The notes under the pieces are model-generated. The model made no database searches. It was not told the origin of the DNA and saw only the letters and a list, made by a program, of their open reading frames with translations. Positions 11,602-15,578 of a stretch of 64,000 nucleotides of DNA are shown piece after piece. Origin of the DNA: Gemmatimonadales bacterium (lineage in GTDB: Bacteria; Gemmatimonadota; Gemmatimonadetes; Gemmatimonadales; JACORV01); NCBI GenBank assembly GCA_049513575.1, contig JBEKVZ010000005.1:64005-128004 (forward strand), read 5' to 3'. Every line of letters begins with the position of its first letter. Within the stretch, counting starts at the first letter, position 1. The position numbers were made by a program, and so were the translations under genes.

Positions 11602-11712
11602 ATTGGCGCGTTAGCGAAACTTCCGGACCCGCGGGCTCGTCGTTTCGGGTGCACCCTGTAAGGAGACGCCGCCGTCATCAATCCCGGAGACTTCGCAGCC
11701 TACGTCTTCACC

Positions 11713-11997
11713 GTGGTTGGGGCCGTCGGTGGAATGGCTATCATCACCGGGGTTGCCAGGCGGATCCTGGACAAGCGATTCGGCCCCAGCCGGACGGCCG
11801 CCGGGGTTCACCTGGGCGGCGATCCGGAAGCGGCCGAAGCGCTCCGCCAGGTGACCGCGGAGGTGGATGCGATGCGGGACGAGATCGCCGGCCTGCGGCG
11901 CGAGTTGGACGAGGCGCAGAACCGCTTGGATTTCACCGAGCGGCTGCTGGGCCAAGTGAAGGAGCGCGGGCTGCTGAACGCGCCGAAGGAGCGCTAG
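11713..11997 (+). CDS. Small single-TM coiled-coil protein, paralog 1 of 5 (C-terminal RLDFTERLL...ERGLLNAPKER)
   Basis: The first canonical start is GTG 11713. However, the TM-encoding in-frame sequence and an AAGGAG (11660-11665) lie upstream, so the true start may be non-canonical (ATC 11677). Confidence 0.6.
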   Translation: MVGAVGGMAIITGVARRILDKRFGPSRTAAGVHLGGDPEAAEALRQVTAEVDAMRDEIAGLRRELDEAQNRLDFTERLLGQVKERGLLNAPKER

Positions 11998-12270
11998 GTG
12001 GAACAACTCGCCCCGGTCATCGTCTCCCTCGCGTTGTTCGCCGTCCTCGGCGCGGTCGTACTGGGCCCCATCGGGCGGGCGTTCGCGGAGCGGCTGCGGG
12101 GCAAGGGCCGGGAGCCGGCGCTGGACAGCGCCGAAGTCGAGGCGCTGCGCGATGAGTTGAGCATCGTGCGCCAGCAGTTGGGGGAGCTGGCCGAGCGGCA
12201 GGACTTCACCGAGCGGCTGCTGGGCCAAGTGAAGGAGCGCGGGCTGCTGAACGCGCCGAAGGAGCGCTGA
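11998..12270 (+). CDS. Small single-TM coiled-coil protein, paralog 2 of 5
   Basis: The GTG immediately follows the stop of paralog 1. It has an N-terminal TM (VIVSLALFAVLGAVVLGPIG) and the C-terminal motif RQDFTERLLGQVKERGLLNAPKER. Confidence 0.7.
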   Translation: MEQLAPVIVSLALFAVLGAVVLGPIGRAFAERLRGKGREPALDSAEVEALRDELSIVRQQLGELAERQDFTERLLGQVKERGLLNAPKER

Positions 12271-12272
12271 GG

Positions 12273-12566
12273 ATGTCGATGATGAGCGGGCCCGAATCCG
12301 TCGGCATGCTCGCGATGGTCGCGCTGATCGGCGTGTCGATCCTGACGCTGGCCAAGGCGTTCGCCAAGCGCATCGCCGGCGGCGCGACCGATTCGCGGGA
12401 AGTCGAAGCGCTCCGGGACGAGGTGGCGCAGCTGCGGGCCGACCTGGAAGGGATGCAGGCACGGCTCGCCGACGTGGACGAGATCCAGAACCGCCTCGAC
12501 TTCACCGAGCGGCTGCTGGCACAGGCGCGGGAGCGCGGGCTCCTGAACGCACCGAAGGAGCGGTAG
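12273..12566 (+). CDS. Small single-TM coiled-coil protein, paralog 3 of 5
   Basis: The ATG lies 2 nt after the previous stop. TM is MLAMVALIGVSILTLA. C-terminal motif is NRLDFTERLLAQARERGLLNAPKER. Confidence 0.7.
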   Translation: MSMMSGPESVGMLAMVALIGVSILTLAKAFAKRIAGGATDSREVEALRDEVAQLRADLEGMQARLADVDEIQNRLDFTERLLAQARERGLLNAPKER

Positions 12567-12571
12567 GCGAG

Positions 12572-12853: not shown

Positions 12854-13185
12854 TGCAGATGGGCCCGAGCCCTCAGGAGATGGTCCCGATCCTCATCCCG
12901 ATCTTCGGGATGCTGACGGGCATCACGATCACCGGCTTCGTGGTGTTGGGCCCGGTGGGCCGCGCGGTCGGCCGGGTGATCATGCGGATCTTCGGCGCCG
13001 ACCGGGAGCTTCCGACCGGGGAGCTGCAGGACATCCGCGGCTTGTTGGAGGATCAGAGCGGGCGGATGGAGGCGGTGCAGCGCCAGCTCGCGGAGCTGGC
13101 CGAGCGCCAGGATTTCGCCGAGCGGCTGTTGGCTCAGGGCCGGAAGGAACCGCAGCTCCCTGGCGCCGGCGGCGCCACCGGGTGA
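12853..13185 (+). CDS. Small single-TM coiled-coil protein, paralog 5 of 5
   Basis: ATG 12853 overlaps the previous stop (TGATG). It lies inside the longer track ORF 12580..13185. TM is ILIPIFGMLTGITITGFVVLGPVG. Motif is AELAERQDFAERLLAQGRKE. Confidence 0.65.
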   Translation: MQMGPSPQEMVPILIPIFGMLTGITITGFVVLGPVGRAVGRVIMRIFGADRELPTGELQDIRGLLEDQSGRMEAVQRQLAELAERQDFAERLLAQGRKEPQLPGAGGATG

Positions 13186-13232
13186 AACATTGATGGCGGG
13201 CTCCGTACTGCCGCCGTCCTGAAGGAGTGGCC

Positions 13233-13628
13233 ATGGTGAGTCGGGAGGACTTGGAGGGCTTCATCTCGAGGCTGGAGGCGGAAGGCATCCATGCCCGCGA
13301 GATCGAGCCCGGCCTGTGGGTGCTGAACGCCAACGGCGACAGCCCCGAGGTGGTCGTCCACTACGCGCCGCCGGTCGTGGTGCTGCGCGTCAAGGTGATG
13401 ACGCTGCCCAAGAAGCTGAAGAAGCCGGACCTGTACCGGCACCTGCTGGAGCTGAACGCCAGGGACCTGGTGCATGGTGCGTACGGAGTGGACGGCGGCG
13501 ACATCGTGCTCTCCGACACGCTGGAGCTCGAGAACCTCGACTTCAACGAGTTCCAGGCGAGCTTCGAATCCATGACGCTGGCGCTGGCGTCGCACCTGGC
13601 GACGCTGGCCCCCTACCGGGAAGCGTGA
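13233..13628 (+). CDS. YbjN-like / T3SS-chaperone-like small cytoplasmic protein (tentative)
   Basis: ATG 13233 lies 5 nt after AAGGAG. The ~130 aa acidic protein has the alpha/beta pattern of the YbjN family. The assignment rests on sequence pattern only. Confidence 0.5.
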   Translation: MVSREDLEGFISRLEAEGIHAREIEPGLWVLNANGDSPEVVVHYAPPVVVLRVKVMTLPKKLKKPDLYRHLLELNARDLVHGAYGVDGGDIVLSDTLELENLDFNEFQASFESMTLALASHLATLAPYREA

Positions 13629-13634
13629 GGCCAT

Positions 13635-14450
13635 ATGGGAATCTTTGACCGTCTGTCCACGCTCCTCCGGTCGAACCTGAATGACCTGATCTCCTCCGCC
13701 GAGAACCCGGAGAAGATGCTGAACCAGCTGATCCTCGACATGCGGAGCCAGTTGGCGAAGGCGAAGCAGCAGGTGGCGGCGGCGATCGCGGACGAGAAGA
13801 AGCTCCAGGCGCAGGCCGAGCAGGAGAAGAAGCAGGCCGACGACTGGGAGAAGCGGGCGATGCTGGCGGTGCAGGAGGGGCGCGACGACCTGGCGAAGCA
13901 GGCGCTGCTCCGGCACTCGGAGCACATGGAAGCCGCTGTCCAGCTCGACGACACCTGGCGCAAGCACGCCGGGGAAACCGAGGCGCTGAAGAACTCGCTG
14001 CGCGCGCTCAACGACAAGATCGAGGAGGCGAAGCGCAAGAAGAACATCCTGATCGCGCGGCAGCGGCGCGCGGAGGCGCAGAAGCGCATCCACGAGACGA
14101 TGGGCTCGATCAGCGACAAGAGCGCCTTCGAGACCTTCGAGCGGATGGCCGACCGCATCGAGCAGAACGAGCGCAAGGCGCTCGCGGCGGCGGAGCTGTC
14201 GGAGGAGCTGTCGGGCGACTCGCTCGCCAAGCAGTTCGAGCAGCTGGAGTACAAGGCGGACGCCGACACGCAGCTCCTCGCGCTGAAGCAGAAGATGGGG
14301 CTCCTCGGCGCGGGCACGGCGGAGCAGCCGAAGCAGCTCGGCGCGGGGGCGGCCGGCGCCTCGGGCAAGGCGACCGACGTGCACGACGCGGAGGTGCTCG
14401 GCGAGGCGGAAGAGGACGAGGAGGACAAGCCGCCGCGCAAGAAAGGCTGA
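13635..14450 (+). CDS. pspA: PspA/IM30 (Vipp1) family protein
   Basis: N-terminus MGIFDRLSTLLRSNLNDLISSAENPEKMLNQLILDM is the canonical PspA/IM30 start. It has a long coiled coil and an acidic C-terminal tail. Confidence 0.85.
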   Translation: MGIFDRLSTLLRSNLNDLISSAENPEKMLNQLILDMRSQLAKAKQQVAAAIADEKKLQAQAEQEKKQADDWEKRAMLAVQEGRDDLAKQALLRHSEHMEAAVQLDDTWRKHAGETEALKNSLRALNDKIEEAKRKKNILIARQRRAEAQKRIHETMGSISDKSAFETFERMADRIEQNERKALAAAELSEELSGDSLAKQFEQLEYKADADTQLLALKQKMGLLGAGTAEQPKQLGAGAAGASGKATDVHDAEVLGEAEEDEEDKPPRKKG

Positions 14451-15578
14451 GTGCCGCCGACTGACGCCGTCCCGTCGGCGCGGCGCGCCGCGCCGGTGGT
14501 CCTGCTCCTGCTGGTGGCCGCGCTCCTGCTGTTCGTCTGGCGGATCGGGGCGCTGCTCCTGCTGGTCTTCATCGCCGCGCTCGTCGCCGTCTATCTCTCG
14601 GCGCTCACCGACGCCGTGGTGCGCTGGGCGCGGGTCCCGCGCCCGCTCGCTCTCACCCTCGCCATCGTCGCGACCCTGGCCGCGCTGTCCGGCATCGCGG
14701 TGCTGGTCGCGGCACCCGTGGCCCAGCAGACCGCGGACCTGATCGCCGCGGTGCCGCAGTACCTCACCGACATCGACGCCCTGATCGCCCGCTGGATCCA
14801 GCGCTTCCCGCAGCTCGTGAGCGCCGGCCTGGGGGCCGGGGAGACCGGCTTGGTGTCGACGTCGCTGCGGGAGGGAGCCGAGTTCGTGCGCCGCGGGATC
14901 ATCCCCACCGCGACCGCCACGGGCCTGGTCCTGATCGACGCCGTCGCAGTGATGGTGATGGCGATCTATTTGGCGGCGCGGCCGGCCGTCTACCAGGAGG
15001 GCATGCTGGCGCTCGTGCCGCCGCGGCACCGCGCCTTCGCGCGCGCGATCGTTCGGGACATCGCCGCGACGCTGCGCGCGTGGGTCGGGGCCCAGCTGCT
15101 CGCGATGGTGATGCTGGCCGTGCTGACGGGCATCGGGCTGTGGCTGCTGGACGTGCCCTACTGGCTGGCGTTCGCCGTCTTCACCGGCGTGGTCGCCCTC
15201 GTCCCCTTCTTCGGGACGCTTTTCTCGACGCTCCTGCCGGCACTGCTCGTCCTCCCGGGGCGCGGCCTCCTGGTGGCGCTCGCCGTGGCGTCCGTGGGCG
15301 TCGTGGTCCACCTGGTCGAGGCCAACCTCGTCAGCCCTCTCGTGATGCAGCGGAAGGTGGCGCTCCCGCCGGTGCTGACGATCCTCAGCGTGCTGATCGC
15401 GGCCGAAGTCTCGGGTCTGGTCGGCATGCTCGTCGCGGTGCCCGCGCTGGCCACGCTCGTCGTTCTCGTGCGCCACATCCTGATCGACCGGGTCTACGGC
15501 GAGGGCACCGAGGACGCGGTCGCGATGAGTCCCGCCGTGCTCGTGACGACGCGAGAGATGCCGGTGGCGAGGGTGTAG
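14451..15578 (+). CDS. AI-2E family (PerM/UPF0118) transporter
   Basis: The GTG abuts the pspA stop. It is a 375 aa polytopic membrane protein with typical AI-2E topology and a conserved C-terminal half (VGxQLxxMxxLxxL, VPFFG). Confidence 0.75.
   Translation: MPPTDAVPSARRAAPVVLLLLVAALLLFVWRIGALLLLVFIAALVAVYLSALTDAVVRWARVPRPLALTLAIVATLAALSGIAVLVAAPVAQQTADLIAAVPQYLTDIDALIARWIQRFPQLVSAGLGAGETGLVSTSLREGAEFVRRGIIPTATATGLVLIDAVAVMVMAIYLAARPAVYQEGMLALVPPRHRAFARAIVRDIAATLRAWVGAQLLAMVMLAVLTGIGLWLLDVPYWLAFAVFTGVVALVPFFGTLFSTLLPALLVLPGRGLLVALAVASVGVVVHLVEANLVSPLVMQRKVALPPVLTILSVLIAAEVSGLVGMLVAVPALATLVVLVRHILIDRVYGEGTEDAVAMSPAVLVTTREMPVARV

Follow-up and report, generated by a model that had tools for sequence, protein, structure and literature searches.

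What do small, unannotated genes do when they stand in a tandem row directly upstream of pspA? The question is raised by a 64,000-nucleotide stretch of a Gemmatimonadales metagenome-assembled genome (MAG; contig JBEKVZ010000005.1), hereafter the window, in which eight co-directional open reading frames (ORFs) lie on the + strand 3' of uvrA: five small paralogs (the array), then three larger genes, among them pspA. PspA, IM30 and Vipp1 are bacterial homologues of ESCRT-III, and their targeting to damaged membrane is understood in few models (PspBC, LiaI, PspM). The paralogs form an undescribed, essentially Gemmatimonadota-specific protein family, and we give a probability of about one half to the reading that they are envelope-stress-induced membrane anchors or adaptors of PspA, which would work like PspB or LiaI without being demonstrable members of either. 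We regard them as partners of PspA because their synteny with pspA is near-obligate, because they are coupled to it within an operon and because their predicted topology is cytoplasmic.

The feature is real and conserved, and its pairing with pspA is not described in the literature that we searched: the Psp/IM30 system is known, its partner family is new. A large unannotated family, of at least 2,481 clusters at 50% identity, is a near-obligate genomic partner of pspA across an abundant, little-studied soil phylum. As far as gene order can tell, the recurrence of the pspA-linked array across the phylum points to what may be a new accessory module for the bacterial ESCRT-III-like system. If the paralogs do anchor or adapt PspA, they would make a new class of ESCRT-III adaptor, the annotation of Gemmatimonadota would gain a named family with a defining motif, and the invariant exposed Phe/Arg patch described below would offer a tractable case for the nucleation of PspA polymers.

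The paralog family and its predicted topology

The array lies in a region of about 70% G+C, downstream of uvrA (8635-11601). On the + strand, and behind a Shine-Dalgarno sequence AAGGAG read at 11660-11665, it consists of paralog 1 (P1, 11674/11677-11997, about 107 amino acids, aa), P2 (11998-12270, 90 aa), P3 (12273-12566, 97 aa), P4 (12572-12853, 93 aa) and P5 (12853-13185, 110 aa), the last array gene in the window's clade. P1 matches the hidden Markov model (HMM) of the family. The intergenic distances are 0, 2, 5 and -1 nt. Since the eight + strand frames of the unit have a G+C content at third codon positions of 0.85-0.96, we favoured them over the overlapping antisense ORFs, a high-GC artefact. 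Pairwise identity among the five paralogs is 25-55%, with the invariant columns R..DF.ERLL in common. ORFs, alignment, hydropathy and AlphaFold2 thus agree with the original prediction, made from the letters of this locus, of five tandem coiled-coil paralogs with a single transmembrane (TM) helix each, a spacing of -1 to 5 nt and a common motif. At NCBI the genes have the locus tags ABSG61_09830 to ABSG61_09850; the identical locus is present in independent assemblies of ENA and of the Joint Genome Institute (JGI), and the P5 gene is also found on at least 22 contigs from independent samples.

The profile searches that had been proposed for the paralogs matched them to no curated family. No model of Pfam, NCBIfam or PADLOC reached its threshold with any of the five, and 85 diverse relatives, scanned individually with Pfam, gave scattered sub-threshold coiled-coil matches only. 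The family profile found nothing meaningful among PDB sequences (ATP synthase b chains at E 0.46-0.96), and a Foldseek comparison of the P2 AlphaFold2 model with the PDB gave nothing useful. The family itself is large. A profile of the five paralogs retrieved at least 6,883 proteins at E <=1e-3 among the best 8,000 candidates, which places the array far beyond chance; all of them carry the annotation 'hypothetical', and where a taxonomic name is given it is always Gemmatimonadales. When 1.84 billion cluster representatives were scanned exhaustively with HMMER, 2,481 clusters (50% identity) came out at E <=1e-3, 230 of them at E <=1e-10, and the best 150 matches were 52-136 aa long with one exception of 262 aa. 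Longer or multi-stretch matches (P0324, P0275, P0342 and others), checked as domain fusions that might give a clue to function, proved to be artefacts, tandem genes joined by frameshift or read-through. Of the 80 best family loci in species-representative genomes, 75 come from MAGs with a Gemmatimon- label, and the remaining five are probably mis-binned contigs.

Within the array, the last 64 nt of P1 (11932-11995) and P2 (12205-12268) are identical, in genes whose proteins are about 50% identical overall. The pattern suggests a recent gene conversion between neighbouring paralogs.

Each window paralog has one hydrophobic 19-residue segment (Kyte-Doolittle mean 1.9-2.7), with 0 Lys or Arg on its N-terminal side and 3-5 on its C-terminal side. 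The same holds more broadly: 93% of the 85 relatives have one 19-residue segment with a mean of at least 1.6, and none has a second. Their Lys and Arg residues average 0.27 in the 15 positions before the TM helix and 3.25 in the 15 after it, and 84 of the 85 members have the richer flank on the C-terminal side. Under the positive-inside rule, such an excess predicts an N-out/C-in orientation. A juxtamembrane box (G/S)P-x-G-(R/K)-A-x-A-x-R-(I/L)-x-G follows in about half of the members. Further on, hydrophobic residues recur at -23, -20, -16, -13, -9, -6, -2, +1 (Ala/Thr) and +5 from an invariant Phe, the frequency of Leu, Ile, Val, Met or Phe being 0.59-0.99 at all of these positions except +1, and they give a clean a/d pattern over five heptads, at least four being our threshold. 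An AlphaFold2 model of P2 from a 60-sequence alignment (mean predicted local distance difference test, pLDDT, 85.8) places helices at residues 5-22, 24-37 and 44-80, in agreement with the heptad register and hydropathy. Its pLDDT is about 98 in the coiled coil, and the C-terminal 10 residues are disordered. We predict that the paralogs are small bitopic inner-membrane proteins, with a short N-terminus in the periplasm, an N-out TM helix, a basic juxtamembrane helix and a cytoplasmic coiled coil of about 37 residues. The last heptads of the coiled coil bear an invariant E-R-x-D-F-x-E-R patch (box E-R-x-D-F-x-E-R-L-L), whose residues R(-3), D(-1), F(0), E(+2) and R(+3) fall on positions g, b, c, e and f, on the exterior of the coiled coil.

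Two smaller points concern these helices. A MIM1-like motif was considered for the ERLDFAERLL box, and by inspection its register does not fit. The juxtamembrane helix of P2 (GRAFAERLRGKGRE, 12074-12123) resembles the protein's own C-terminal box (RQDFTERLLGQVKE, 12197-12246), at 70% in the DNA and also in the protein, and a juxtamembrane box of the type [FIL]A[DE]R[IL] occurs in about half of the family. The likeness may be that of an internal repeat, or of two segments binding one surface.

An architecture of this kind might also belong to a scaffold of general use in the cytoskeleton, the divisome or bioenergetics (like FtsB/DivIC, YhcB/ZapG or ATP-synthase subunit b), unrelated to Psp and only accidentally syntenic with it. 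Some members are labelled YhcB-like or YlxW-like by JGI annotators, and there are weak matches to the ATP synthase b chains mentioned above and to DivIC: P3 matches the FtsB/DivIC profile (PF04977) at a sub-threshold E of 0.0012, and 2 of the 85 relatives match it below threshold as well. Yet all such matches are sub-threshold and look compositional. FtsB and DivIC have a periplasmic coiled coil (N-in/C-out), the opposite of the topology predicted for the 84 of 85 members that obey the positive-inside rule for a cytoplasmic C-terminus. Synteny with pspA, which is shared by three diverged clades, also speaks against an accident, and we regard a scaffold of this sort as very improbable.

The nearest known architecture is that of PspB. 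In the enterobacterial pspABCDE system, PspB is a bitopic protein of about 74 aa, with an N-out TM helix and a cytoplasmic heptad helix, that is thought to relay membrane stress to PspA together with PspC. Its single-copy gene lies downstream of pspA, paired with pspC, in an operon that depends on sigma-54 and PspF. The paralogs are like PspB in their small size class (90-110 aa here), their N-terminal TM helix, their predicted cytoplasmic leucine-zipper-like C-terminus and their place in a pspA operon. They are unlike it in occurring as 2-11 diverged copies upstream of pspA, in carrying the DFxERLL box, which PspB lacks, and in standing behind a promoter of the extracytoplasmic function (ECF) type. 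When the eight operon proteins were scanned with Pfam and NCBIfam, neither a PspC nor a PspF domain came up, unlike in the enterobacterial psp operon, and the locus does not have the pspA-pspB-pspC context under sigma-54 and PspF.

The family could still be a highly diverged branch of PspB (PF06667), and the arrays amplified pspB genes. In addition to the common size class, N-out helix, zipper-like cytoplasmic helix and position beside pspA, hhalign gives a probability of 53% with E. coli PspB and of 63% with a PspB alignment, and PF06667 finds 2 of the 85 relatives, below threshold and at best with an E of 0.0018. However, none of the five window paralogs matches PspB at E <=1, and the hhalign values cover 30 coiled-coil columns only, the 63% alignment pairing ...ELEERLD with ...ALESILD. 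The PspB alignment behind that figure is shallow, its members being at least 82% identical and all of the top 120 matches enterobacterial. Other coiled-coil families score equally well or better (DivIC 1.8e-4, Rod_CreS 4e-4), and PspB lacks the DFxERLL box, whereas the operon lacks pspC and pspF and has an ECF-type, not a sigma-54-type, promoter. A diverged PspB is in our view improbable. When the locus was first read, a likeness to PspB was noted along with the lack of an obvious sequence relation; both observations stand, and kinship is unproven at hhalign values of 53-63%.

Linkage to pspA across genomes

In the window, the array leads into a CesT/Tir-type chaperone-like gene (CesT_Tir_1, 13227-13628, +), pspA (13635-14450, +, 271 aa) and an AI-2E family transporter gene (14451-15578, +, 375 aa). 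The distances are 41 nt from P5 to the CesT-like gene, 6 nt from there to pspA and 0 nt to the transporter gene, whose start codon abuts the pspA stop codon. The call of pspA and an AI-2E permease behind the paralogs was correct. The PspA/IM30 protein, of the bacterial ESCRT-III superfamily, matches PF04012 over residues 2-219 (E 2.4e-46, 158.5 bits against a Pfam cut-off of 33.9), and also TIGR02977 (E 4.4e-39), yet under the equivalog cut-off of the latter; the transporter matches PF01594 (AI-2E_transport, E 7.6e-51, 173.7 bits against 34.3). The gene between P5 and pspA, on the other hand, had been taken for a YbjN-like one and has to be renamed: it matches CesT_Tir_1 (PF22550, E 4.5e-27, 95 bits against 27), and YbjN at an E of 0.016, under the Pfam cut-off.

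We surveyed the linkage in both directions. In the forward survey, the paralog HMM was run against the stop-to-stop ORFs of 80 genome loci centred on the family, of which 26 (the window included) have same-strand tandem arrays of 3-11 family genes. In all 23 arrays with downstream DNA, pspA comes next, usually with a CesT-like gene between, and the remaining three arrays end at a contig edge. The reverse survey took 80 metagenome loci centred on relatives of the window PspA, 44 of them with at least 1.5 kb of upstream sequence. Two or more family genes lie directly upstream of pspA in 43 of these 44 loci, three or more in 40, and the copy number in complete pspA-centred loci is 0-7, mostly 3-6. 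The proposed survey of pspA neighbourhoods for the DFxERLL family thus revealed a linkage that is conserved in both directions across many genomes, including three diverged clades. The AI-2E gene comes behind pspA at 36 of 42 loci and uvrA ahead of the array at 18 of 22, and the adjacency of array and pspA persists despite the loss of CesT, uvrA or AI-2E neighbours. The only constant neighbour of the arrays is pspA. In line with what had been anticipated for the paralogs, they fall into no characterized family, their homologs do neighbour pspA, and a TM helix and a coiled coil are predicted.

The CesT-like gene is dispensable. It is missing in 21 of 35 complete loci, where the array abuts pspA and therefore leaves no room for it. 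A whole clade has the order uvrA, array, pspA, AI-2E (L094, L100-L107, L111-L112, L118, L127-L128, L132, L136, L141, L147-L148, L153, L156-L160). Because this CesT-less clade keeps the R.DF.ER box in 100 of 102 copies, the CesT-like protein is not an obligate ligand of the box.

Operons with a CesT/Tir-PspA dyad, of the yjfI-yjfJ type, are described by Ravi et al. 2024 (PMC11237479), with band-7/flotillin, AAA+ ATPase, YqiJ/YuaF, polyamine enzymes and DUF350 as partners. The window is like them in having a co-directional CesT/Tir-superfamily gene directly upstream of pspA, at a gap of 6 nt; unlike in the described dyad, many Gemmatimonadota loci have no CesT gene while the array persists. Term searches of that paper and of Popp et al. 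2022 (PMC9239133) found neither Gemmatimonadota nor TM-coiled-coil arrays. AI-2E, searched in PMC11237479 only, is not mentioned there, and nothing relevant came from searching the literature for the phylum and PspA in combination. The claim that a fivefold array is not a described Psp architecture holds in so far as term searches of these two large comparative-genomics papers bring up no mention of it, but the number five is not fixed, since arrays have 2-11 genes.

Array organization, promoter and candidate roles

The arrays are structured, not random amplifications. By clustering the N-terminal and TM portions of 147 array members, we obtained subtypes, to which P2 (subtype E), P4 (A) and P5 (C, with a 'PIFGMxTG' TM segment) belong. 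All of the 26 arrays have subtype A (MEDILAI..FGGG..SFSPVGRA), and about 22 have the PIFGMxTG subtype. Subtype order is conserved too: one clade has [H/K/O]-B-A-A-D-..., and in that of the window ...E-A-C leads up to CesT. The median gap within arrays is 3 nt, and the most frequent values are -1 and -4. A conserved tail ...APKER is encoded as ...AAG GAG CGC at 11981-11997, 12254-12270 and 12550-12566, and its codons AAG GAG are a Shine-Dalgarno sequence AAGGAG for the next array gene, so the PKER tail may have a dual role in coding and in translational coupling. Conserved subtypes, order, tight gaps and this tail fit the stoichiometric co-production of non-redundant subunits, and hence either a hetero-oligomer or several distinct sensors. 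A membrane receptor with multiple inputs or subunits is suggested by the occurrence of conserved subtypes in multi-paralog arrays; the multi-subunit sensor or anchor set supposed when the locus was first read is an inference of the same standing.

Directly 3' of the uvrA stop codon lies a conserved box with a putative ECF-sigma-type promoter (11603-11641, +). Its layout is TAGATTGGC-N4-TTAGCGAAACTT, a 17-nt spacer and CGTC, with the -35 element GCGAAAC (GAAAC at 11616-11620) and the -10 element CGTC at 11638-11641. GAAAC and CGTC are invariant in 10 aligned loci in which the spacer has diverged, and 36 of 59 arrays have GAAAC-N16/17-CGT[C/A/T] at a distance of 40-250 nt ahead of their first gene, the background of the strict form being 0.004 per 330 nt. 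One clade has ...CGTC and another GAAACAT...CCGTA. Promoters of this class have a tGAAAC or GCAAAC -35 and a CGTA or CGTC -10 (PMC5758882), and that of pspA in the Streptomyces coelicolor sigma-E regulon reads GGGAAC-N17-CGTC (PMC6767563); pspA depends on sigma-W in Bacillus subtilis and on sigma-E in S. coelicolor (PMC6767563; PMC5758882). The motif upstream of these orthologous operons has the same conserved features, namely AAC in the -35, a spacer of 16-17 nt and CGT(C/A/T) as -10, like the ECF-controlled pspA genes with CGT(C/A). To judge by its promoter class, the unit would be an envelope-stress operon.

Other regulatory signals were sought as well. A scan for sigma-70 promoters found none, Rfam has no known element in the leader or terminator, and a sigma-54 promoter, considered for the conserved TTGGCGCGTTAGCGAAAC box, was rejected by inspection as the GG-N10-GC spacing does not occur. 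No ECF sigma or anti-sigma gene stands next to the arrays examined in the second clade, where a DPP-IV-type peptidase and a kinase are found instead. The invariant sequence at 11603-11620 (TAGATTGGC...TTAGC) goes further upstream than an ECF -35 requires, and may be an additional regulator site or an UP-like element overlapping the uvrA stop codon.

We propose that the array is transcribed with pspA, and usually with the genes for the CesT-like chaperone and the AI-2E transporter, from the ECF-sigma-type promoter as an envelope-stress operon, and that its genes are translated with tight coupling. In the membrane, the paralogs would assemble as homo- or hetero-oligomers into coiled-coil stalks. 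As anchors, adaptors or sensors, the stalks would recruit the ESCRT-III-like PspA polymer to the inner leaflet or nucleate it there. In enterobacteria PspB/PspC have this task, and in Bacillus LiaI. The conserved TM subtypes could receive distinct membrane inputs, and the common distal patch could be the docking or assembly surface. The analysis shows the protein architecture, family size, synteny, subtype conservation and promoter motif, and we infer stress induction, oligomerization and PspA binding. Known parallels are LiaI-LiaH in Bacillus and PspM-PspA in Mycobacterium, in which a small membrane protein is co-expressed with the PspA homologue under an envelope-stress regulator (LiaRS, or ClgR/SigE) and serves as its anchor. 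LiaI and PspM differ from the paralogs in sequence and topology, and are single genes without a coiled-coil stalk. A more daring extension, which we put forward tentatively and do not expect to hold in full, is that the arrays encode an ordered hetero-oligomer of up to eleven subunits, a receptor or nucleation platform for the PspA polymer and a counterpart of the eukaryotic ESCRT-III nucleators. Each TM subtype would then report a different membrane lesion, and the orphan copies described next would plug other membrane processes in through the E-R-x-D-F-x-E-R patch.

Several observations weigh against a role as PspA anchors or adaptors. About 55 of the 80 family-centred loci are single orphan copies at a distance from pspA; they keep the architecture and the motif but have no conserved neighbour (the best candidate is a Ser/Thr kinase, at 6 loci). 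The family is therefore not exclusively a companion of pspA and may act in a broader or different process, and these orphans help to keep our confidence at the level given at the outset. One pspA locus, the sole exception (L154, 1700-4900), is devoid of any family gene and has genes for serine dehydratase subunits and a methyltransferase between uvrA and CesT-pspA. The promoter motif is the only strict match in the 64-kb window, where about one is expected by chance, so the case for it rests on conservation between loci. It is absent in the CesT-less clade, in which the first family gene follows uvrA by about 30 nt and the array may be co-transcribed with uvrA. Finally, R(-3) and E(+2) are spaced i to i'+5, as in an interhelical salt bridge of the g-e' kind, and D(-1) and R(+3) form an i to i+4 pair. 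Part of the conservation of the box may thus be structural rather than that of a docking surface, but an invariant exposed Phe would be more typical of a binding hot spot.

Orphan copies of the same architecture, scattered without pspA, would also be expected if the paralogs were not adaptors at all but co-regulated envelope-stress effectors or clients, with only a promoter in common with pspA. They could be independent small membrane proteins (e.g., scaffolds), or proteins whose insertion needs the CesT-like chaperone and the protection of PspA. ECF regulons typically group many unrelated membrane proteins (PMC6767563), and CesT/Tir proteins are proposed as assembly chaperones for membrane complexes (PMC11237479). 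Yet the adjacency to pspA is nearly universal and outlasts the loss of CesT, uvrA and AI-2E, the coupling is tight and internal to the operon rather than merely at the level of a regulon, and the putative chaperone gene is absent from those 21 of 35 complete loci. We find the effector or client explanation unlikely, if clearly less so than a diverged PspB or a general scaffold.

Start of the first paralog, an orphan variant and the closing hairpin

P1 has no ATG, GTG or TTG before its TM helix, and the first canonical start, GTG at 11713, lies downstream of it. An in-frame TAA (11659-11661) is followed by the Shine-Dalgarno sequence, which has an AGGAG/GGGGG box as its equivalent in orthologous loci, and then by GTC ATC AAT CCC.... 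We compared this region (11659-11715) with that of the loci L002-L007, L081-L086 and L133. At the start of P1, orthologs have GTG (L001, L084), or ATC, TTC or GTC and then ATC. The codons at 11674-11712 are conserved in orthologs with synonymous changes, and because the downstream changes are synonymous, this 5' stretch appears to be translated. The sequence of the start region is identical in three independent assemblies. The start of P1 is likely a conserved near-cognate AUC codon, the ATC at 11677. Automatic callers shorten P1 to 87 aa, from ATG 11734.

Some of the orphan copies (L021, L031, L039, L049, L060, L061 and others) form a subtype with a longer N-terminus, in which ...GEPWHAT.HAALA..FGLWAQ..., with a conserved His and Trp, precedes the coiled coil. 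They may be a distinct sensor-like variant.

The eight-gene unit closes with a composite hairpin between convergent genes (15570-15685, no strand), in which a central 9-bp stem (15615-15639) is flanked by inverted arms of GGGGTTA-type heptamers. The large palindrome that had been called a terminator is real (-72 kcal/mol, z = -6.6), but it has no T-tract and is therefore not a textbook intrinsic terminator. A similar palindromic element, with GGGGTTA-type heptamers and G-rich/C-rich arms around a hairpin, recurs at 35705-35790, and the heptamer pattern has 7 matches in the window against 0.01 expected. The number of heptamer repeats varies, since one unit is missing in another assembly of the locus (L161).

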